22,492 nt of DNA from a virus. Taxonomy: Duplodnaviria; Heunggongvirae; Uroviricota; Caudoviricetes. Where the stretch lies: the IMG/VR virus record IMGVR_UViG_2671180963_000005; one strand, written 5' to 3'. Positions 1 to 7,608 of this stretch are shown here, one piece after another (within the stretch, counting starts at the first letter, position 1; each line of letters begins with the position of its first letter). The translations under genes were made by a program, and so were the position numbers. A model generated the notes under the pieces. That model was not told the origin of the DNA, searched no databases, and saw only the letters and a program-made list of their open reading frames with translations.

Positions 1-1284
1 TTACTTCTTCGCCTCTGCAACCACTTTACTACCCACGCCGCGGTTATTGTATTCCCACATGCGGTTGTAGTTAGTGTCATTCAGATTGCGCTGTATTTCG
101 TCGTTATCATCTACGCTGCCGGTATTACCCGCAAACGGACGATTAGAGATCACCGCATCGGCCCACGGTTTAGCCGTGTTAAAACCTTCGTTGATGGCGC
201 TATCACGGATCACCACCTGACCGTTGGTATTGGCATCAACATCCAGCGAGCGGCCCAGTTGCGCCACACCATCACCGAAAGCATTGAAACGGCTGTTTAC
301 GGCGAGGAAACCGTAGTAAATGTTGGACAGCGTAGCCGGTGCAAACACATACGCTTCTTGCTGAGTACGTGAGTTCACCACGCGGAATTCGGTGTTATCG
401 AACACCACTGCGCCGCGACCAGAAACGATATCCACATCCCCTTCAATGTAGCTGTTGGTCACCAGCGTACGCGGCTGACGATTTGTTTCCAGACGGTTCT
501 GCACACCGCTGTTGGTGACAAAGAAGGTGTTCTGACGACCGAGAATGTTAACGTTGTTAATCTGTACCTGGTCACCATCAGTACGCAGTGCCACCGCCGG
601 ATGGTTACCTGCATCTACGCTATCGCCCAGCGTGTTTTCGATGGTCAGATTTTGCAGTTGCAGGCCATTGTTTTGTGACCAGAAGACCGCAGAGCAGAGA
701 ACACCGATACTGTCGCTGCGTTTGCTCTGGCAGCTATCGTACATATACCACGCTGGTTTACCTGGCATATATTTGCCGCGCGGGTTGACGTCGTGACGCC
801 AGTCGGCAGGGCTCATGCCACCATCAAGGGAAAGCCCAATCTTCACATCAATCGGTTTTTCACCTGTACCGTACAGAGTAATTCCACCCGGAGCGGCAGG
901 GACATATACCGTTCCCTGATACTCACCAGGCATCACGGCAATATACTGGCGCTTGTTGGTACGCTTGATAATTGCCGCATCTACCGCCGCCTGAATCGTG
1001 GTATGCGTTACACCTTGAGTGCCCGCCGGGCCGACAACAAAGTCAGGTTGCGCAGGCAGGGTAATCGGGGAAGGATTCCACGCTGCAGCACCTGGTGTCA
1101 GGGATGCAAAATAGTGTTGAGCATCGAAATTCTGCGCTTCTTTTGCCGACAGAATCGGGCGAGAAGAGGTACCAGGCGCGGTTTGATCAGAAGGACGTTG
1201 ATCGGGCGGGGTTGAGCTACAGGCGGTCAGCGTCACGCCAAAAGCCAATGCCAGCGCCAGACGGGAAACTGAAAATGTGTTCAC
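1..1284 (-). CDS. ybhC: YbhC, pectinesterase-family outer-membrane lipoprotein (host gene flanking lambda attB)
   Basis: Complete 427-aa ORF with stop at 1-3; N-terminal signal peptide with lipobox LTAC; sequence recognised from memory as E. coli YbhC; its start lies 47 bp from the att core, as at the K-12 attB locus. Confidence 0.85.
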   Translation of the reverse strand: MNTFSVSRLALALAFGVTLTACSSTPPDQRPSDQTAPGTSSRPILSAKEAQNFDAQHYFASLTPGAAAWNPSPITLPAQPDFVVGPAGTQGVTHTTIQAAVDAAIIKRTNKRQYIAVMPGEYQGTVYVPAAPGGITLYGTGEKPIDVKIGLSLDGGMSPADWRHDVNPRGKYMPGKPAWYMYDSCQSKRSDSIGVLCSAVFWSQNNGLQLQNLTIENTLGDSVDAGNHPAVALRTDGDQVQINNVNILGRQNTFFVTNSGVQNRLETNRQPRTLVTNSYIEGDVDIVSGRGAVVFDNTEFRVVNSRTQQEAYVFAPATLSNIYYGFLAVNSRFNAFGDGVAQLGRSLDVDANTNGQVVIRDSAINEGFNTAKPWADAVISNRPFAGNTGSVDDNDEIQRNLNDTNYNRMWEYNNRGVGSKVVAEAKK

Positions 1285-1309: not shown

Positions 1310-1422
1310 AAAATGAATCCGTTGAAGCCTGCTTTTTTATACTAAGTTGGCATTATAAAAAAGCATTGCTTATCAATTTGTTGCAACGAACAGGTCACTA
1401 TCAGTCAAAATAAAATCATTAT
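1310..1422. other. attL (B-O-P') of a lambda-att integrated prophage: core GCTTTTTTATACTAA at 1331-1345, P' arm-type Int sites at about 1392-1422
   Basis: Exact lambda 15-bp core seen in sequence, flanked on the left by the attB B-arm (tgaagcct) and on the right by lambda P' arm sequence gttggcattataaaaaagcattgcttatcaatttgttgcaacgaacaggtcactatcagtcaaaataaaatcatta. Confidence 0.92.
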
Positions 1423-2579
1423 TTGATTTCAATTTTGTCCCACTCCCTGCCTCTGTCATCACGATACTGTGATGCCATGGTGTCCGACTTATGCCCGAGA
1501 AGATGTTGAGCAAACTTATCGCTTATCTGCTTCTCATAGAGTCTTGCAGACAAACTGCGCAACTCGTGAAAGGTAGGCGGATCCCCTTCGAAGGAAAGAC
1601 CTGATGCTTTTCGTGCGCGCATAAAATACCTTGATACTGTGCCGGATGAAAGCGGTTCGCGACGAGTAGATGCAATTATGGTTTCTCCGCCAAGAATCTC
1701 TTTGCATTTATCAAGTGTTTCCTTCATTGATATTCCGAGAGCATCAACATGCAATGCTGTTGGGATGGCAATTTTTACGCCTGTTTTGCTTTGCTCGACA
1801 TAAAGATATCCATCTACGATATCAGACCACTTCATTTCGCATAAATCACCAACTCGTTGCCCGGTAACAACAGCCAGTTCCATTGCAAGTCTGAGCCAAC
1901 ATGGTGATGATTCTGCTGCTTGATAAATTTTCAGGTATTCGTCAGCCGTAAGTCTTGATCTCCTTACCTCTGATTTTGCTGCGCGAGTGGCAGCGACAGG
2001 GTTTGTTGTTATATGGCCTTCAGCTATTGCCTCTCGGAATGCATCGCTCAGTGTTGATCTGATTAACTTGGCTGACGCCGCCTTGCCCTCGTTTATGTAT
2101 CCATTGAGCATTGCCGCAATTTCTTTTGTGGTGATGTCTTCAAGTGGAGCATCAGGCAGACCCCTCCTTATTGCTTTAATTTTGCTCATGTAATTTATGA
2201 GTGTCTTCTGTTTGATTCCTCTGCTGGCCAGGATTTTTTCGTAGCGATCAAGCCATGAATGTAACGTAACGGAATTATCACTGTTGATTCTCGCTGTCAG
2301 AGGCTTGTGTTTGTGTCCTGAAAATAACTCAATGTTGGCCTGTATAGCTTCAGTGATTGCGATTCGCCTGTCTCTGCCTAATCCAAACTCTTTAATGGCT
2401 TTTTTGCTGGCCCCGTGGCGTTGCAAATGATCGATACATAGCGATTCAAACAGGTGCTGGGGCAGGCCTTTTTCCATGTCGTCTGCCAGTTCTGCCTCTT
2501 TCTCTTCACGGGCGATCTGCTGGTAGTGACGCGCCCAGCTCTGAGCCTCAAGACGATCCTGAATGTAATAAGCGTTCAT
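1419..2579 (-). CDS. int: Tyrosine integrase, lambda Int family; residues from [10 protein letters not shown] onward are lambda Int, the first ~62 residues are unrelated to the lambda arm-binding domain
   Basis: 386-aa ORF; C-terminal ~325 aa match lambda Int as remembered (…[28 protein letters not shown]); stop overlaps the P' arm as in lambda; own SD (caggag) 7 nt upstream of the ATG at 2579. Confidence 0.9.
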
Positions 2580-2654
2580 GGCTGAACTCCTGAAAATGGC
2601 TGTGAAAAAATCGCCCGCGGAATGCCAGGCTGATTCGGAAAACAGGAAAGGGGA

Positions 2655-2945
2655 TTAGTGATTCAGACCGTTGCCGCGTCCGTCGAGAAAAACTTCCACG
2701 AGCAAGTCACGGGTATAAGTGCGCTCAATGCCGCGATGCAGATAAAGTCGTCCGTGTAAATTAGCTGATGCAGTCCAGGTACCATCTTTGCGTTTGACCA
2801 GCATTCCTGGCATGACCGCACCGCGATTAACGGTCTGCGTTCCGTAATGTTGATGAACCATAAAAACTCCTGCCCGTAAGCTGGGCTGCTGAACATATAA
2901 AGACTTCTGCGCGTATTCAGGCGGTGGATGGCCGCCGGTTGTCAT
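2655..2945 (-). CDS. Hypothetical protein in the xis position directly upstream of int; no confident homology
   Basis: 96-aa ORF ending 75 bp upstream of int on the same strand; not lambda Xis; function not recognised. Confidence 0.3.
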   Translation of the reverse strand: MTTGGHPPPEYAQKSLYVQQPSLRAGVFMVHQHYGTQTVNRGAVMPGMLVKRKDGTWTASANLHGRLYLHRGIERTYTRDLLVEVFLDGRGNGLNH

Positions 2946-3140
2946 AACTAAGCCGCCTCGTTGAAGCGACTAAGGTATGAAATGTTGAGTTGATTTCAGC
3001 TGGTCACACCGACGTTCACGCGTCCGTTTCATCCCTCGCACTCCCCGAAGCCTGCTGAAATTCAAGCTGCGGATCTAAGCGGTCATCGCAACGGTGAATC
3101 AGGTGGTTGCCGTATCGTTGTGTTGTTGCGATATGGTGAT

Positions 3141-3181
3141 AATAGCTATTGCTATTGGTGATATCAATGCTTATTGCTATT
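3141..3181. promoter_or_regulatory. OL-like operator region: two TTGCTATT motifs 25 bp apart (3149-3156, 3174-3181) plus inverted repeat ATAGC-N4-GCTAT (3142-3155)
   Basis: The same motif pair with identical 25-bp spacing recurs in the cI/cro intergenic region (5729-5736, 5754-5761). Confidence 0.45.
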
Positions 3182-3308
3182 AGTTGATGTGTTTTGATAT
3201 TAAATGTTTGATAGCAAAAAGAATTAATTTTGTGACTTGCATCGCATAGCGATAACTGAAGTGAGGTCGTGGTGGTTTTTTGAACGGTTTGTGTGATGGG
3301 GGGAGGGC

Positions 3309-3335
3309 AAAAGAAAACCCGGCACGGTAGCCGGG
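3309..3335 (-). terminator. Rho-independent terminator at the end of the cI-TAC leftward operon
   Basis: On the minus strand: stem CCCGGC, loop taccgt, stem GCCGGG, followed by TTTTCTTTT, immediately after the stop of the SecB-like ORF. Confidence 0.7.
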
Positions 3336-3349
3336 AGTTATATTTGAAT

Positions 3350-3853
3350 TTAATCTAATGAAGGTATGTCTGATTTATTGAATTTAAAGAATGGTATAGC
3401 TATTGTAGTAATTCCCATTCTGGATGTGCTGTTTTGAACATACTCTCGCCAAAAAGGCCATACATTAAAACCTACATTTTGCTTAGCAAATTCTTCTAAC
3501 TCTTCTTTAGATAATTCTCTCTTTGAGCGATATATCGCCTCAAAAATTGCTTCTATAGAAAAAATTGTATCAACATCATTTTCGTCTTTAGATGTTTCTT
3601 CGGATTTTGCAATAAATCTAAGCCCAACTGAGTAGTGAAAAGAGTAATATAGCTCATTTTTTAATGAGTCATCGTCACTTACTAATTCAATAGCTTCGAT
3701 TTTTTTTATCTTACGAAATGATTGTGTTTGCTTATTTATGCTGTTGAAGTTAAAGCTATTATACCCTTCAGAAAAAGCAAAGTTAGATTCTCTGATATTG
3801 ATATGCATTATTGATAATGCGTCTATTGCTGATCTAAGAAGTTCATTCATCAT
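3350..3853 (-). CDS. SecB-like chaperone, third component of a toxin-antitoxin-chaperone (TAC) module
   Basis: 167-aa ORF; start ATG overlaps the antitoxin stop (ATGA coupling); by-eye similarity to E. coli SecB (IMHINIRESNFAF vs IQRIYTKDISFE; IFSIEAIFE vs IFSIAGIEG; VWPFWREYVQNSTSRMGITTIAIPFFKF vs [28 protein letters not shown]); AT-rich. Confidence 0.65.
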   Translation of the reverse strand: MMNELLRSAIDALSIMHINIRESNFAFSEGYNSFNFNSINKQTQSFRKIKKIEAIELVSDDDSLKNELYYSFHYSVGLRFIAKSEETSKDENDVDTIFSIEAIFEAIYRSKRELSKEELEEFAKQNVGFNVWPFWREYVQNSTSRMGITTIAIPFFKFNKSDIPSLD

Positions 3854-4458
3854 GCTACCCGCTTAGCAACAGTTTTTATCTTTATTGATGTTTGATTCAT
3901 TTTTGTTTGGGCTGGTGATTTGCTGTCAAATCCCTGATCATCGTTTTCAAATTGTGCTTTTGCTTCAGATTTCCATATAGGTAAAGATTTAGATGATGAG
4001 ACTGTTCTTTCAACTTTGATTTCGCCAGATAATTCCCGTAACCTTTTGAATGCATCAGGAACTTCTGCTGCTAAACGCATCAGTTTATCCATTGCTTCTG
4101 ATTGAATGACATCATCAGATTCATACTTGGAAAATGCCTTAGGCCCCCCACCAAATATAGAGGATGCCTTTTGCTGGGTTATCATCCATACTTCAGTTCT
4201 AATTTTTTTTAATTCTTTTCCTGTTAAAAGTCCATCGATAGACTTTTTGTATTCATTGAAAATTCGTTTGTTTTCTCGTAAATCGACTGGTGTGGCAGTT
4301 TCCGAACCACATTGATCACACACAGAAAACCTTATTGGGAGATTTTTTGTTTCCCCTTTATAAGTAACATCATCATACTCCATCTCCACGGTGAGATGAC
4401 CTACACCACAAACTGGACATATGTTGTTGTTTCTCATATAAAAATCCTCATTTATCAT
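3850..4458 (-). CDS. MqsA-like antitoxin (zinc-ribbon N-domain plus HTH-XRE domain) with ~65-aa C-terminal extension (putative chaperone-addiction tail)
   Basis: CPVCG…CDQCG zinc-binding motifs and HTH region ITQQKASSIFGGGPKAFSKYE matching MqsA LTQKEASEIFGGGVNAFSRYE; protein ~70 aa longer than the 131-aa MqsA; start taken as the ATG at 4456-4458 (a GTG at 4459-4461 is an alternative); abuts the toxin stop. Confidence 0.75.
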   Translation of the reverse strand: MINEDFYMRNNNICPVCGVGHLTVEMEYDDVTYKGETKNLPIRFSVCDQCGSETATPVDLRENKRIFNEYKKSIDGLLTGKELKKIRTEVWMITQQKASSIFGGGPKAFSKYESDDVIQSEAMDKLMRLAAEVPDAFKRLRELSGEIKVERTVSSSKSLPIWKSEAKAQFENDDQGFDSKSPAQTKMNQTSIKIKTVAKRVA

Positions 4459-4461
4459 CAC

Positions 4462-4872
4462 TCAATTAGAGAGATGAAGAGATACTGTAAGCACTACATT
4501 GCCAGTAATGTTTACAAAAAATTTAATGTAGAACTCGTTATTAAGTTCTTTATGCATAGCTTGGCACCAAAATGAGTGCTCAAAGCTATAAGCATCACAA
4601 GCTGCCCATACACCTGGTTTACTGCCTTGACACCATTCTGAACCTAGAAATCTCCCTTTAGTGACTGCTTTTATCACCATAGATTTGATGTCATCTGCAT
4701 CTAAAGAAAGCGATTGAACATCCCTGATACACCGTCTAGTCCAAGGCAGTGTGTCACATTCATCAATCAAATCAATGATATCTAAATAAAGCGGACCACC
4801 TTGAATCTTTCTGTCCTCGCCATCACGGGGAGGAGTTCCCACATATCTGCTAAGAATCATACTTGTTACCAT
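4462..4872 (-). CDS. MqsR-like (RelE-fold) toxin, first gene of the TAC module
   Basis: 136-aa ORF immediately upstream of the MqsA-like gene in toxin-first order as in mqsRA; C-terminal YIKFFVNITGNVVLTVSLH resembles MqsR YLKITVIHDVLIVSFKE; alternative start at ATG 4860. Confidence 0.6.
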   Translation of the reverse strand: MVTSMILSRYVGTPPRDGEDRKIQGGPLYLDIIDLIDECDTLPWTRRCIRDVQSLSLDADDIKSMVIKAVTKGRFLGSEWCQGSKPGVWAACDAYSFEHSFWCQAMHKELNNEFYIKFFVNITGNVVLTVSLHLSN

Positions 4873-4991
4873 TATGGTAAGTCTAGTCTAAAAGCACGTG
4901 CATATTGTTTTTTTGTGCTGTATGTAAGTTACTCGTCGATCTGCAACTGTGAGTCTGGATAGCTTACAAAATAGAGTTGACACGTCCTTCA

Positions 4992-5684
4992 CTACCCATG
5001 CTTCCTATACGTCTGCGGCATGCTTCCGATGACTTTCCCGAAGATGAATACCCGGTTCATCTCGTCTTTCTCGATCGGGTCCCACGGTGAGTAGCTCTTG
5101 TTATCAGAGATAACTAGCAGCTTATCCTTCATCATTTGCAGGCGCTTTACATGGGCTGTGTCGTCATACAGAAACGCATAGATACCATCACCGTCGAAAG
5201 ATTTAACCGTGATATCAACGAACAGAAGATCACCTGGTTCGATCGTTCCTGACATGCTGTCACCGCGTACGTTAATGATGCGGATATTTTCTGCCTTCCT
5301 ACCATCGAACATGTGACGAGCATCGTCAAACGAGTACTCAACCGAGCGTAGAACTTCTACAAACTCACGGTTGATGACTCCCGGCCCGGCACTGACTTCT
5401 ATATCAAGAACGTCAATTTTGAAGTATTTTGAATGGCTGACAGCAGGCTTCCCTGATTGTTGACCGTCATTTCTCATCGGGCCTATGCCTGATGAGAGCC
5501 ATTCTGTTCGAACACCCAATGCATTAGCTATTTCAACAATTTTTGTTGAGCCGCGAGCGTTGCCGCTTGTCAGTCTCCAGATTGTGGGTTGAGCTACGCC
5601 AGACGCCTTTGCAAGAGCGCCTTGAGACATTCCAGATTGTTCCATCGCTAGGTTTAAGCGATCAGCAAGAGTTTCTTTTTTCAT
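4992..5684 (-). CDS. CI-like prophage repressor (HTH-XRE N-domain plus LexA/S24 peptidase C-domain)
   Basis: HTH MSQGALAKASGVAQPTIWRL; S24 motifs GDSM and K-R; divergent to a Cro-like gene; first ATG at 5684 (ORF track extends to a TTG at 5720); likely a leaderless or short-leader mRNA as for lambda cI. Confidence 0.8.
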   Translation of the reverse strand: MKKETLADRLNLAMEQSGMSQGALAKASGVAQPTIWRLTSGNARGSTKIVEIANALGVRTEWLSSGIGPMRNDGQQSGKPAVSHSKYFKIDVLDIEVSAGPGVINREFVEVLRSVEYSFDDARHMFDGRKAENIRIINVRGDSMSGTIEPGDLLFVDITVKSFDGDGIYAFLYDDTAHVKRLQMMKDKLLVISDNKSYSPWDPIEKDEMNRVFIFGKVIGSMPQTYRKHG

Positions 5685-5794
5685 AAGTTTTAATTTATAC
5701 GCTTGCGTATTGATGGTCAAAACACGTTTTGCTATTGCTTGGATTAATACGCATTGCTATTATTCATTCATTGCAATACCAATAGGAATTGATA
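5685..5794. promoter_or_regulatory. Divergent cI/cro promoter-operator region (OR-like): inverted repeat ATACGC-tt-GCGTAT at 5697-5710; TTGCTATT motifs at 5729-5736 and 5754-5761
   Basis: Perfect 6-bp inverted repeat with 2-bp spacer; repeated motifs shared with the 3141-3181 region; lies between divergently transcribed repressor and Cro-like genes. Confidence 0.6.
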
Positions 5795-6022
5795 ATGACA
5801 AATCAAACCATTCAACTCGCAATCAGTATTACAGGTAGTCAAAAACGACTGGCAGATCTATGCGGTGTAGCCCAACCCACAGTTTGGCGTTGGCTACACG
5901 GTGGCGGAATTGATGCCCGCTATGTAATGAAAATTGTCTCAGCCACTGGTGGAAAGATTAAACCAGCAGATATTCGTCCCGACCTCGCACCATTGTTTAA
6001 CGCGAGTAATTCTGCCGCCTAA
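5795..6022 (+). CDS. Cro/YdaS-like HTH regulator
   Basis: 75-aa ORF with HTH (QKRLADLCGVAQPTVWRW); SD AGGAA 6 nt upstream of the ATG at 5795; divergent from the repressor. Confidence 0.7.
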   Translation: MTNQTIQLAISITGSQKRLADLCGVAQPTVWRWLHGGGIDARYVMKIVSATGGKIKPADIRPDLAPLFNASNSAA

Positions 6023-6046
6023 ACTGCGGCGTTAACTGATAAGGCA

Positions 6047-6592
6047 ATGACTATGCAACCACTTACATACCAACAGACTAGCGGATTTAGCCCGACTGCG
6101 GTGATAAATCGTTCTCAAACAAAACAGGCGCCAGGCCACGAAAAAATCCGTGATGCCGTTCGCGCCTGGTCGGCTGCAGATAATCAGGATGTTGTTGCCG
6201 CACTCATTGTGAATGAGTATCGGGAGCAGGGCGGCGGCACCATCGATTTCCCTGATGATGTCAGCCGTGCACGCCAGAAGCTGTTCCGCTTCCTCGATAA
6301 CAAATTCGATTCTGAAAAATACCGAAATAACGTGCGTGAACTGACCCCGGCAATTCTGGCGGTACTACCGCTGGAATATCGCGGCCACCTGGTTGAGCAG
6401 GATAGCTACATGGCTCGGCTGGCTGAAATGGAAAAGGAACTCAGTGAGGCAAAACAGGCTGTCATTCTCAACGCACCACGCCACCAGAAACTGAAGGAGA
6501 TGAGTGAAGGCATTGTGTCGATGTTTCGTGTGGACCCGGATTTGGCTGGTCCACTGATGGCGATGGTCACCACCATGCTGGGGGCAATATGA
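6047..6592 (+). CDS. YdaT-like protein (CII-position regulator of Rac-type immunity regions)
   Basis: Central region IVNEYREQGGG…ELTPAILAVLPLEYRGHLVEQDS resembles Rac YdaT as remembered; located in the cII position between cro-like and O. Confidence 0.55.
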   Translation: MTMQPLTYQQTSGFSPTAVINRSQTKQAPGHEKIRDAVRAWSAADNQDVVAALIVNEYREQGGGTIDFPDDVSRARQKLFRFLDNKFDSEKYRNNVRELTPAILAVLPLEYRGHLVEQDSYMARLAEMEKELSEAKQAVILNAPRHQKLKEMSEGIVSMFRVDPDLAGPLMAMVTTMLGAI

Positions 6593-6678
6593 CAGGTTCG
6601 GAAATGGCGAAAGCCGGTCTGCGCGAACAGAACCGACTTTCAGGTGCAAATCGTAACACACTCATTGCGGGAGGAATT

Positions 6679-7608
6679 ATGGCAAACACTGCTGAGATAT
6701 TCAATTTTCCAGTGCCGGATGTGGCACAAAAGGAGCGGCGCGTGGCAGATCTCGACGATGGTTATACGCGCATTGCAAATGAGTTGCTGGAAGCTGTGAT
6801 GCTGGCCGGATTAACACAGCACCAGCTTCTGGTCTTCCTGGCTGTCATGCGCAAAACATATGGCTTTAATAAAAGACTGGATTGGGTGAGCAACGAGCAA
6901 CTTTCCGAATTGACCGGGATATTGCCGCACAAGTGTTCTGCTGCAAAAAGCGTTCTGGTAAAGCGTGGGATTCTTATTCAGAGCGGGCGGAATATCGGCA
7001 TTAATAATGTGGTCAGTGAATGGTCAACATTACCCGAATCAGGTAAGAAAAATAAAGTTTACCTGAAAGAGGTAAATTTACCTGAATCAGGTAAAAAAAG
7101 TTTACCCAAATCAGGTAAAGGCGTTTACCCGAATCAGGTAAACACAAAAGACAAACTAACAAAAGACAATATAAAACCTTTTTCGTCCGAGAATTCTGGC
7201 GAATCCTCTGACCAACCAGAAAACGATCTTCCTGTGGTGAAACCGGATGCTGCAATTCAGAGCGGCAGCAAGTGGGGGACAGCAGAAGACCTGACCGCCG
7301 CAGAGTGGATGTTTGACATGGTGAAGACCATCGCGCCATCAGCCAGAAAACCGAATTTTGCAGGGTGGGCTAACGATATCCGCCTGATGCGTGAACGTGA
7401 CGGACGTAACCACCGCGACATGTGCGTGCTGTTCCGCTGGGCATGCCAGGACAACTTCTGGTCCGGTAACGTGCTAAGTCCGGCCAAACTCCGCGACAAG
7501 TGGACCCAGCTCGAAATCAACCGAAACAAGCAACAGGCTGGCGTGACAGCCGGCAAACCAAAACTCGACCTGACGAACACTGACTGGATTTACGGGGTGG
7601 AGCTATGA
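6679..7608 (+). CDS. O: Replication initiator O (hybrid: divergent iteron-binding N-domain, lambda-like P-interacting C-domain)
   Basis: N-terminus aligns with the lambda O start (…VADLDDGY…); C-terminal ~130 aa match lambda O; SD GGGAGG before the ATG at 6679 (an in-frame ATG at 6589 overlapping the upstream stop is an alternative start); iterons inside the gene. Confidence 0.85.
   Translation: MANTAEIFNFPVPDVAQKERRVADLDDGYTRIANELLEAVMLAGLTQHQLLVFLAVMRKTYGFNKRLDWVSNEQLSELTGILPHKCSAAKSVLVKRGILIQSGRNIGINNVVSEWSTLPESGKKNKVYLKEVNLPESGKKSLPKSGKGVYPNQVNTKDKLTKDNIKPFSSENSGESSDQPENDLPVVKPDAAIQSGSKWGTAEDLTAAEWMFDMVKTIAPSARKPNFAGWANDIRLMRERDGRNHRDMCVLFRWACQDNFWSGNVLSPAKLRDKWTQLEINRNKQQAGVTAGKPKLDLTNTDWIYGVEL
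7030..7141. repeat. Replication origin iterons: five copies of TTACC(C/T)(G/A)A(A)(T/A)(C/G)AGGTAA at 7030, 7059, 7078, 7102 and 7125, followed by an A-rich tract (7142-7195)
   Basis: Direct repeats seen in sequence, each internally palindromic (TTACC…GGTAA), inside the O gene and encoding the LPESGKK repeats; same architecture as ori-lambda. Confidence 0.85.

Follow-up and report, generated by a model that had tools for sequence, protein, structure and literature searches.

The window (the whole stretch of DNA analysed here, 22,492 nucleotides) holds a defective prophage in which xis and recombination genes have been lost and gam is fused to int. In its immunity region, a leftward gene block that begins with a cI repressor gene and ends with a toxin-antitoxin-chaperone (TAC) cassette has predicted operators and promoters at both ends. 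The following features lie between positions 3139 and 6022.

3139-3167, minus strand (leftward): promoter PL, from a promoter scan (10/12 matches); -35 TTGATA at 3167-3162, -10 TATTAT at 3144-3139
3142-3155: predicted operator OL1, ATAGCTATTGCTAT (ATAGC-N4-GCTAT), in the PL spacer and overlapping the PL -10; from matrix and alignment with relatives
3167-3180: predicted operator OL2, ATGCTTATTGCTAT, centred 25 bp from OL1 and abutting the PL -35; from matrix and alignment
3187-3200: weak candidate operator OL3, ATGTGTTTTGATAT, centred 20 bp from OL2; left half poorly conserved
3213-3201, minus strand: exact match to the core consensus of integration host factor (IHF), TATCAAACATTTA, within a module at 3201-3233
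3318-3335, both strands: bidirectional intrinsic terminator, predicted to end the cI-cargo transcription unit
3350-3853, minus strand: candidate SecB-like chaperone gene (Pfam SecB, E=0.0084, short of the curated threshold; PADLOC PD-T4-9_C, E=7e-4; RefSeq name SecB)
3850-4437, minus strand: MqsA-family antitoxin gene (TIGR03830, 113 bits, cut-off 61.8; Pfam MqsA_antitoxin over residues 7-134 of 195)
4462-4872, minus strand: presumed toxin gene, assigned from gene position only; alternative start codon at 4860
4992-5684, minus strand: cI repressor gene, N-terminal helix-turn-helix (HTH) and S24 autopeptidase (Pfam Peptidase_S24, 1.3e-18, and HTH_3)
5692-5720, minus strand: promoter PRM, from a promoter scan; -35 TTGACC at 5720-5715, -10 TAAATT at 5697-5692
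5697-5710: predicted operator OR3, ATACGCTTGCGTAT (ATACGC-N2-GCGTAT), within the PRM spacer
5722-5735: predicted operator OR2, ACACGTTTTGCTAT, 2 bp from the PRM -35, its last base in the PR -35
5735-5763, plus strand: promoter PR, read from the sequence; -35 TTGCTT at 5735-5740, -10 TATTAT at 5758-5763
5747-5760: predicted operator OR1, ATACGCATTGCTAT, in the PR spacer and overlapping the PR -10
5795-6022, plus strand: cro-like gene of the YdaS family (Pfam YdaS_toxin, 9.6e-15)

By Pfam, the cI product combines an HTH with a self-cleaving S24 domain, as lambdoid repressors do, and its translation contains the Ala-Gly, GDSM and VKRL motifs (cleavage site, Ser/Lys). The recognition helices of the repressor (VAQPTIWR) and of the cro-like product (VAQPTVWR) are nearly equal; both proteins should therefore bind the same 14-bp pseudo-palindromes. 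Among solved structures, the closest to the N-terminal domain of cI is the 434 repressor (E about 1e-5, HTH domain only), whose operators are also 14 bp long. The inner, GC-containing halves of the window's operators are of two kinds, ATAGCAA or ATACGC. The two are not obviously equivalent, and the preferred sites of CI and Cro might differ.

The TAC cassette sits in a known cargo slot of the rexAB type. The slot extends from the cI stop codon to the terminator beside OL, and PRM thus probably drives cargo expression in lysogens, as it does for rexAB in lambda. The antitoxin continues for about 60 residues past residue 134, a C-terminal extension like that of TAC antitoxins and a possible chaperone-addiction element, and its stop overlaps the chaperone start (ATGA). 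The presumed toxin has no match in Pfam, NCBIfam, PADLOC or PDB sequences, and so falls in none of the recognised families (MqsR, HigB, HicA, CmdT). Its single-sequence AlphaFold model (pLDDT 45) is unusable; a remote MqsR-like fold is conceivable. A promoter-like site at 4885-4856 was rejected as the cassette promoter because transcription from it would begin downstream of both candidate toxin starts.

A preliminary description of this DNA had drawn attention to the word TTGCTATT, starting at 3149, 3174, 5729 and 5754. A word search confirms these positions: the four copies in 22.5 kb all lie on the plus strand, as two same-strand pairs, each 25 bp apart, and a scan of both strands of the whole window reveals no others. 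The raw count is weak by itself (4 against 1.39 expected, with at least 4 in 5 of 100 shuffles), and both regions that bear the word are AT-rich (31-40% GC). The arrangement is another matter. Every 8-mer was checked for two far-apart pairs with an equal spacing of 9-40 bp, a procedure that corrects for the word having been picked post hoc. TTGCTATT is the sole 8-mer in the real window to pass. None of 1000 first-order Markov simulations produced such an arrangement, and one of 1000 did so when the base composition was set to that of the AT-rich stretch 3100-5800. The density of the word is 19.6 per kb within the 204 bp of OL and OR and zero in the remaining 22.2 kb of the window, which disposes of the proviso in the preliminary description that it might be a common AT-rich word of similar frequency throughout the genome. 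In heteroimmune phage DNA it occurs once in 91 kb (0.011 per kb). Given these figures, and the conservation of the sites across six genera described below, the explanation that a common AT-rich word simply recurred by chance in AT-rich intergenic DNA is barely credible, the modest excess in raw count and the base composition notwithstanding.

Judged from the sequence, TTGCTATT is not itself the functional unit but the right half of a 14-bp pseudo-palindromic operator, ATA-N8-TAT. Its same-strand orientation is not conserved: in a relative from O157:H7, both OL words point the other way, still 25 bp apart. The two palindromes said to accompany the word, at 3142-3155 and 5697-5710, are exact and have perfect arms; they are not separate features, since they are OL1 and OR3 themselves, in the same register as the other operators. 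Likewise, the claim of one architecture at both ends holds for the 25-bp pair present at each, but OR comprises three sites with centre-to-centre spacings of 25 and 25 bp, whereas OL has two at 25 bp and a weak third at 20 bp.

At the right end, the three related sites lie between cI and cro, all within the top four matches to an independent matrix (below), and they overlap the divergent predicted promoters PR and PRM, as in a lambdoid OR. Both PRM hexamers are invariant in nine loci, and the 7-nt gap between the PRM -10 and the cI ATG is constant in length and variable in sequence. So short a gap implies that the cI mRNA is leaderless. PR falls below the threshold of the promoter scan, and its -35 matches the consensus at 3/6 positions; its TTGC and TATTAT are conserved across genera, and the -10 hexamer is the same as that of PL. 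The spacer is 17 bp in PL, PR and PRM.

At the left end, OL1 and OL2 are operators of the OR type that overlap a leftward promoter beyond the cI transcription unit, as in a lambdoid OL, and the terminator at 3318-3335, whose sequence is common to relatives with other cargo, separates PL from the cI-cargo unit. Across the six genera, the mean pairwise identity of the PL hexamers is 0.94 (-35) and 0.96 (-10). The third base of OL2 is G here (ATG for ATA) and A in 67 of 70 automatically parsed relatives, a substitution that could lower affinity. At the position of OL3, Klebsiella phage ST11-VIM1phi8.2 has a clear third site, ATAGCAATGGCTAT, and one IMG/VR relative has ATGTGTTTTGCTAT. Further upstream, the IHF match overlaps a half-site, ATAGCAA (3211-3217), followed by a conserved AT-rich box (3218-3233); the module lies approximately 70-100 bp upstream of the PL start, and its half-site and box have a mean pairwise identity of 0.89-0.90. 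The IHF scan recovered the known att H' site at 1371-1383 as a positive control and returned 7 matches in the window against 1.7 expected. A role for this IHF-consensus site is presumed.

A phylogenetic footprint (nine loci at OR, from six enterobacterial genera) shows that the sites are conserved. Promoter hexamers and operators are near-invariant while the spacers drift: mean pairwise identity is 1.00 for OR3, 0.98 for OR2, 0.97 for OR1, 0.90 for OL2 and 0.84 for OL1, and about 0.5 for the inter-site spacers. To avoid circularity, a matrix was derived from operators in Salmonella, Klebsiella, Kluyvera, Citrobacter and Raoultella alone. Its four best matches among about 45,000 positions in the window are, in order, OR1, OL1, OR3 and OR2; OL2 ranks seventh. 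The OL pair is present in 74 of the 80 viral (IMG/VR) contigs that encode an identical cI; five more end too soon on the OL side to show it, and one with sufficient flank lacks it. Nor are the sites tied to the cargo: in the 70 parsed relatives, OL1 and OR1 lie between 1565 and 2777 bp apart, with 25 distinct distances.

Heteroimmune phages also point to these sites. Identity between PhiR5_1 and the window is 95-100% over 2900-3119 and 85-95% over 3220-3259, but only 50-65% across 3140-3219, where OL lies; PhiR5_1 diverges again at 5549-6051, which comprises the cI N-terminal domain, OR and cro. Each of four immunity types has its own half-site at both ends, those of the other three being AACAACC (PhiR5_1), ATAACC (HK639) and TGAAC (HK022), and the recognition helices of cI and cro change in step with the half-site. 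An assignment to HK022 immunity, suggested by the annotation of ST104 (cI HK022-like), was rejected, as the cI of HK022 shares only 40% identity with that of the window and HK022 has operators of the TGAAC type.

These observations bear on a second explanation, namely that the sites are operators of the HTH-bearing MqsA-like antitoxin, which would thereby autoregulate its own TAC cassette on either side. Antitoxins of the MqsA family do bind DNA and regulate their own expression, and the sites do flank the cassette. Yet identical OL and OR occur in relatives with unrelated cargo (ASCH-domain, SIR2, kinase/phosphatase and ImmA/DUF4411 genes), while in Klebsiella phage 2b the same TAC cassette lies between OL and OR of the HK022 type. 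Further, the sites co-vary with the recognition helices of cI and cro. Control by the antitoxin is therefore very unlikely. Conservation, the co-variation of half-site and helix, and the occurrence of TAC under HK022-type operators elsewhere indicate that the sites belong to CI and Cro.

The preliminary description also stated that no N-like gene survives to the left. There is indeed no N-like ORF between PL and kil in the window, nor a nutL; the implied loss is not borne out, because the intact relatives PhiR70_1 and 4A7, in which the order is PL, leader, kil, gam, bet, exo, lack N as well. The absence of N is thus not a product of decay. Downstream of PL comes a conserved untranslated leader, about 270 nt long, and terminator-like hairpins lie inside kil and just downstream of it, ahead of gam. 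A put-type antiterminator RNA in this leader was considered and rejected: MAFFT aligns HK022 putL with the annotated HK639 putL-like RNA, not with the window. Searches of the leader by blastn with 7-nt words gave nothing above noise against put RNAs and no second copy of the leader in the window, and it folds no better than shuffled sequences (z = -1.36). The sole match in an Rfam scan of 2400-6800 (E up to 1) is a chance isrJ hit on the terminator. In a lineage without an N gene, nut site or recognisable put RNA, the leader, or the module of IHF site, half-operator and AT-box upstream of PL, could control read-through. That either encodes such an undescribed control of early-left transcription is an improbable idea; if it were true, the function of the OL region would go beyond repression of PL.

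The preliminary description had suggested that OL- and OR-type sites for a CI-like repressor bracket the cI-cargo block. The suggestion is supported by the sites themselves and the way they are spaced, by the promoter-like hexamers that they overlap, and by the fact that they are conserved and change along with repressor specificity. We propose, with a probability of roughly 0.88, that the TTGCTATT words are operator halves of a lambda-type switch in a defective prophage at the E. coli lambda attachment site. In such a switch, OR1 and OR2 would cover PR, which would drive cro, the cII-like gene, O and P; OR2 would abut the PRM -35 and OR3 would lie inside PRM. OL1 and OL2, 2.6 kb from OR, would cover PL, and with it the expression of kil and the remaining recombination genes. 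Binding by CI and Cro, cooperativity, PRM activation, looping and co-transcription of TAC with cI we infer by analogy with lambda and with prophage CP-933P. CI dimers would bind cooperatively at sites 1 and 2 and thereby silence PR and PL, and CI at OR2 would stimulate PRM. OR3 would provide negative autoregulation, possibly aided by OL-OR looping, and Cro would occupy the same operators in reverse order. The PRM transcript, predicted to be leaderless, would continue past cI and across the cargo until it reached the terminator at 3318-3335.

The most serious rival to this lambda-type switch is that the sites are true operators by descent that persist as relics, or that they are used mainly by the Cro-like protein, such that a mechanism centred on CI is inoperative here. 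The prophage is defective, as the missing xis and recombination genes and the gam-int fusion attest, and present-day function in this strain is accordingly not guaranteed. OL2 also departs from nearly all parsed relatives at its third base, and the comparative data fit use of the sites by CI and by Cro alike, so that they do not separate the two. On the other hand, cI, cro, the three OR sites and the promoters are intact, essentially as in the plaque-forming phage PhiR70_1 (99.9% identical over 2900-6100), and cI is 100% conserved in the 80 viral contigs. Because a kil-type FtsZ inhibitor remains under PL, and O and P remain under PR, derepression should be harmful. We consider it quite unlikely that the CI-centred mechanism is inoperative.

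Of 5426 complete E. coli genomes, 719 (about 13%) carry this immunity type, O157:H7 strains included, and it also occurs in phages of Salmonella, Klebsiella, Kluyvera, Citrobacter and Raoultella. The practical value of the analysis is therefore one of annotation: it provides an operator sequence, a site map and a promoter map for a common E. coli immunity type. The layout is that of the classic lambda switch and is conceptually nothing new; the operator sequence is previously undescribed, and our literature search yielded no searchable paper that prints it.

The likeness to lambda extends to gene order, three operators between divergent cI and cro, PL operators approximately 2.6 kb away past the cargo that follows cI, the placement of site 1 in the promoter spacer and -10 and of site 2 at the -35 and beside PRM, a leaderless cI, and an IHF-consensus site upstream of PL. 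Centre spacings are 25/25 (OR) and 25/20 (OL) here and 24/23 and 24/20 in lambda. Unlike those of lambda, the operators measure 14 bp rather than 17 bp and have unrelated sequences, Cro belongs to the YdaS type and the cII analogue to the YdaT type, PL is followed by neither an N gene nor a nut site, and TAC cargo replaces rexAB. With phage 434 the window shares 14-bp operators that have conserved outer bases and a variable centre, as well as the closest solved cI N-terminal domain. Their outer bases differ (ACAA/TTGT in 434, ATA/TAT here), and the protein similarity is weak and confined to the HTH.

An operon that joins a repressor to a toxin-antitoxin pair, with OL and OR, is already known from experiments on CP-933P of E. 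coli O157:H7, the paaR2-paaA2-parE2/ydaS-ydaT immunity region (PMC8630535). There, the repressor gene of a repressor-toxin-antitoxin operon is leaderless, and operators at OR and OL/PL are bound by PaaR2 and YdaS, with binding and repression demonstrated experimentally (PMC8630535). In both systems, a CI-like repressor gene, leaderless, is followed by a toxin-antitoxin module in one transcription unit (predicted in the window), Cro is YdaS-type and the CII analogue YdaT-type, OR lies between PRM and PR, and a distant PL has OL operators (three in CP-933P; two and a weak candidate third in the window) and PR-like hexamers. In contrast, the CP-933P operators are four 18-bp palindromes with the consensus GTTTAGTAA, its cargo is ParE-type and has no chaperone, and the window's YdaT-like protein is only distantly related (E=2e-4). 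Identity with the PaaR2 system was rejected on this last ground, and because an O157:H7 prophage with the window's cI carries SIR2 cargo rather than paaA2-parE2. The CP-933P YdaT operator, TTGATT-N6-AATCAA, has one copy with one mismatch over the cro start, and its total count is not above chance. By sequence comparison, then, the window's system is an analogue of that of CP-933P, not the same system.

A variable defence-gene slot downstream of cI, at the rexAB position, has been described for HigBAC of E. coli NT1F31 (bioRxiv 10.1101/2024.02.24.581848) and for MqsRAC (PMC9519451). Although the presumed toxin of the window, unlike theirs, matches no known family, its predicted SecB-type TAC likewise lies directly downstream of cI, and relatives with an identical cI carry many different cargos there. 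The map given here delimits the slot in which these phages swap anti-phage cargo.

We found that the left (OL) and right (OR) predicted operator clusters around the cI-cargo block are real and ordinary, a conclusion that is well supported by the comparisons detailed here. The genes surrounding them are as follows.

Genes and landmarks of the window
1-1284, minus: YbhC, at the left end of the window
1419-2579: lambda-type integrase ORF with its N-terminus swapped for that of Gam (an in-frame gam-int fusion)
2655-2861 or 2945, minus: kil-type FtsZ inhibitor
right of kil, left of the left TTGCTATT pair: untranslated stretch
3318-3335: bidirectional terminator
3350-4872, minus: three cargo genes
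4992-5684, minus: cI, with HTH and S24 domains
between cI and cro: 110-bp intergenic region containing the right TTGCTATT pair
5795-6022: cro, YdaS-family
right of cro: YdaT-family cII analogue, then O, P, ren and emrE

Because YbhC adjoins the gam-int fusion integrase, the window is a lambdoid prophage at the lambda attachment site. A deletion took the gam C-terminus, bet, exo, xis and the int N-terminus; the prophage is unable to excise and is locked next to ybhC. In the RefSeq annotation of E. coli Z1323CEC0003, this locus appears as a partial int and a partial gam. Adjoining the fusion ORF, at 1371-1383, is the lambda att H' IHF site, TATCAATTTGTTG. Over 2900-6100 the window is 99.9% identical to PhiR70_1, a plaque-forming phage.

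On rechecking, all four copies of TTGCTATT and both palindromes lie where the preliminary description had placed them. The count of the word is by itself weak evidence (four against 1.39 expected, with four reached in 5 of 100 shuffles). Its arrangement, by contrast, is not weak. When every 8-mer was scored for two distant pairs sharing one spacing of 9-40 bp, TTGCTATT was the only one in the real window to qualify, and such an arrangement arose in none of 1000 first-order Markov simulations and in one of 1000 with AT-rich composition. The word is absent from the remaining 22.2 kb of the window, and 91 kb of DNA from heteroimmune phages contains a single copy. Its same-strand orientation holds in the window but not as a conserved trait: an O157:H7 prophage sharing this cI has the word inverted at each of its two OL sites (ATAGCAATGGCTAT and ATAGCAATTAGTAT), with the 25-bp spacing retained.

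Leftward extension of each TTGCTATT yields 14-bp pseudo-palindromes with the ends fixed as ATA and TAT. The palindromes that had been described as accompanying the words exist, but they are not additional elements: ATAGC-N4-GCTAT is OL1, and ATACGC-N2-GCGTAT is a third OR operator, OR3. The latter lies exactly 25 bp from OR2; OR therefore comprises three sites with spacings of 25 and 25 bp.

Predicted operators and promoters
3142-3155: OL1, ATAGCTATTGCTAT, centre 3148.5
3167-3180: OL2, ATGCTTATTGCTAT, centre 3173.5
3187-3200: weak candidate for a third OL site, ATGTGTTTTGATAT, 20 bp past OL2
5697-5710: OR3, ATACGCTTGCGTAT, centre 5703.5
5722-5735: OR2, ACACGTTTTGCTAT, centre 5728.5
5747-5760: OR1, ATACGCATTGCTAT, centre 5753.5
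3167-3139, minus: PL, TTGATA-17-TATTAT, from promoter scan
5720-5692, minus: PRM, TTGACC-17-TAAATT, from promoter scan
5735-5763, plus: PR, TTGCTT-17-TATTAT, read from the sequence

All three predicted promoters have a 17-bp spacer, and PR and PL have a common -10 hexamer. OL1 lies within the PL spacer and -10, and OL2 abuts the PL -35; OR1 is similarly placed within the PR spacer and -10, the PR -35 taking in the final base of OR2. OR3 lies within the PRM spacer, with OR2 2 bp away from the PRM -35. Only 7 nt separate the predicted PRM -10 from the cI ATG, a gap whose length is constant in nine relatives while its sequence varies. So short a gap implies that the cI mRNA is leaderless, like that of lambda. 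The repressor mRNA of CP-933P is also leaderless (PMC8630535).

Three further observations concern individual sites. OL2 reads ATGCTT in the window, whereas its first three bases are ATA in 67 of the 70 IMG/VR relatives that encode an identical cI and were parsed automatically; this change, at an otherwise invariant outer base, might weaken OL2. At 5776-5789, ATACCAATAGGAAT has the fifth-highest score in the window against the operator matrix. Lying 29 bp from the OR1 centre and overlapping the ribosome-binding site of cro, it keeps ATAC and GGAAT across genera and could be either a fourth weak site or just a 5' untranslated region that is conserved. The start codon of cro is covered by TTGATAATGACAAATCAA (5789-5806), which is one mismatch from TTGATT-N6-AATCAA, the repeat recognised by CP-933P YdaT; the window total of such repeats is not above chance, and its YdaT is only distantly related to that of CP-933P.

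The sites co-vary with immunity type. The heteroimmune phage PhiR5_1 matches the window in the C-terminal domain of cI and throughout the region from cII onward, but diverges over 5549-6051, a stretch that takes in OR, cro and the N-terminal domain of cI. At the left end, identity between the two is 95-100% in the PL leader (2900-3119) and 85-95% over 3220-3259, but drops to 50-65% over 3140-3219. Both ends carry the same site type in each heteroimmune phage: AACAACC in PhiR5_1, ATAACC in HK639, and TGAAC in HK022 and two Klebsiella phages. Further, the cI and Cro recognition helices are similar within each phage and shift together with immunity type (VAQPTIWR and VAQPTVWR in the window type, SQPAIQK and SQPAVHK in HK639, SQAAIQK and SQQAVYK in PhiR5_1, cI being given first).

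Conservation was assessed by aligning OL and OR from E. coli phage 4A7, Salmonella phage ST104, Klebsiella phage ST11-VIM1phi8.2, and prophages of three Kluyvera species, Citrobacter pasteurii and Raoultella. Mean pairwise identity was 1.00, 0.98 and 0.97 for OR3, OR2 and OR1, 1.00 for both the PRM -35 and -10, 0.84 and 0.90 for OL1 and OL2, and 0.96 and 0.94 for the PL -10 and -35, against about 0.5 for spacers and flanks. In an independent motif test, a position matrix built from non-E. coli sites only was scored over the whole window; its top four positions were OR1, OL1, OR3 and OR2, with OL2 seventh. The segment comprising the cI N-terminal domain and OR was found in 719 of 5426 complete E. 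coli genomes.

Sequence comparison indicates that the predicted OL/OR sites are not a property of the cargo. In relatives that share this cI, the same slot is filled by unrelated genes (ASCH-domain genes; SIR2; a kinase and phosphatase; ImmA and DUF4411). Among 80 IMG/VR contigs encoding an identical cI, the OL pair was found in 70 by automatic pattern and in 4 by eye; 5 others are too short on the OL side, and 1 with sufficient flank had no OL pair. The OL1-OR1 distance takes 25 distinct values (1565-2777 bp) across the 70. Conversely, Klebsiella phage 2b carries the cassette of the window (74% nucleotide identity over 3304-4924) between HK022-type operators. The cargo site is a variable defence slot downstream of cI, one occupied in lambda by rexAB. 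A HigBAC system is known from this slot (bioRxiv 10.1101/2024.02.24.581848).

The antitoxin of the cassette clearly belongs to the MqsA family and has a tail of ~60 residues at its C-terminus. The chaperone is only weakly SecB-like, and the presumed toxin (4462-4872, minus, 132-136 aa) had no match in Pfam, NCBIfam, PADLOC or PDB sequences; a toxin-antitoxin-chaperone (TAC) identity is therefore plausible. A single-sequence AlphaFold model of the toxin was unusable (pLDDT 45). No terminator-like site was found between cI and the cargo, and the arrangement fits co-transcription of the two, for which the lambda cI-rexAB unit and the paaR2-paaA2-parE2 operon are precedents. The cI-toxin intergenic region (4923-4968) contains a 9-bp inverted repeat, TGTAAGTTA / TAGCTTACA, with arms 28 nt apart; the segment common to phage 2b extends to 4924 and does not include the right arm.

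An N gene is missing from the early-left operon, and this had been described as N failing to survive. Decay is not the explanation, as the intact relatives PhiR70_1 and 4A7 likewise lack N, with the order PL, leader, kil, gam, bet, exo. In the window, ~190-270 nt of untranslated leader (2862-3131, minus) separate PL from kil, and terminator-like hairpins at 2712-2696 and 2630-2613 lie inside and just past kil, before gam; the intact relatives have this layout too. Searches of the leader found no nut site, no put-like element and no match to an Rfam family. Some 70-100 bp upstream of the PL start, a module at 3201-3233 includes TATCAAACATTTA on the minus strand, a sequence that fits the IHF core consensus exactly and overlaps an immunity-specific half-operator, ATAGCAA (3211-3217), next to a conserved AT-rich box. 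By eye, the IHF core is retained in 7 of 9 aligned relatives, and heteroimmune phages have their own half-site at this position beside the same AT box. In ST104, ST11-VIM1phi8.2 and HK639, the stretch from OL to the terminator encodes a small rightward gene (1990-2215, 1851-2054 and 6762-6998 in comparison loci L004, L005 and L010); the corresponding stretch of the window, 3226-3317, has only a remnant of it, an 11-codon GTG ORF.

Given the anatomy of the region and the analogy with lambda and CP-933P, the mechanism is most likely the standard lambdoid one. CI dimers would cooperatively fill sites 1 and 2, turning off PR and PL, and CI on OR2 would aid PRM. OR3 would serve autorepression, possibly with OL-OR looping across 2.6 kb, while Cro, acting on the same sites, would turn off PRM first. 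What is new is the operator specificity, and the operator sequences are printed in no searchable paper; the architecture is very well known. Spacings in lambda are 24/23 bp in OR and 24/20 bp in OL. Among solved structures, the 434 repressor is nearest to the cI N-terminal domain, and its operators, like those predicted here, are 14 bp long.
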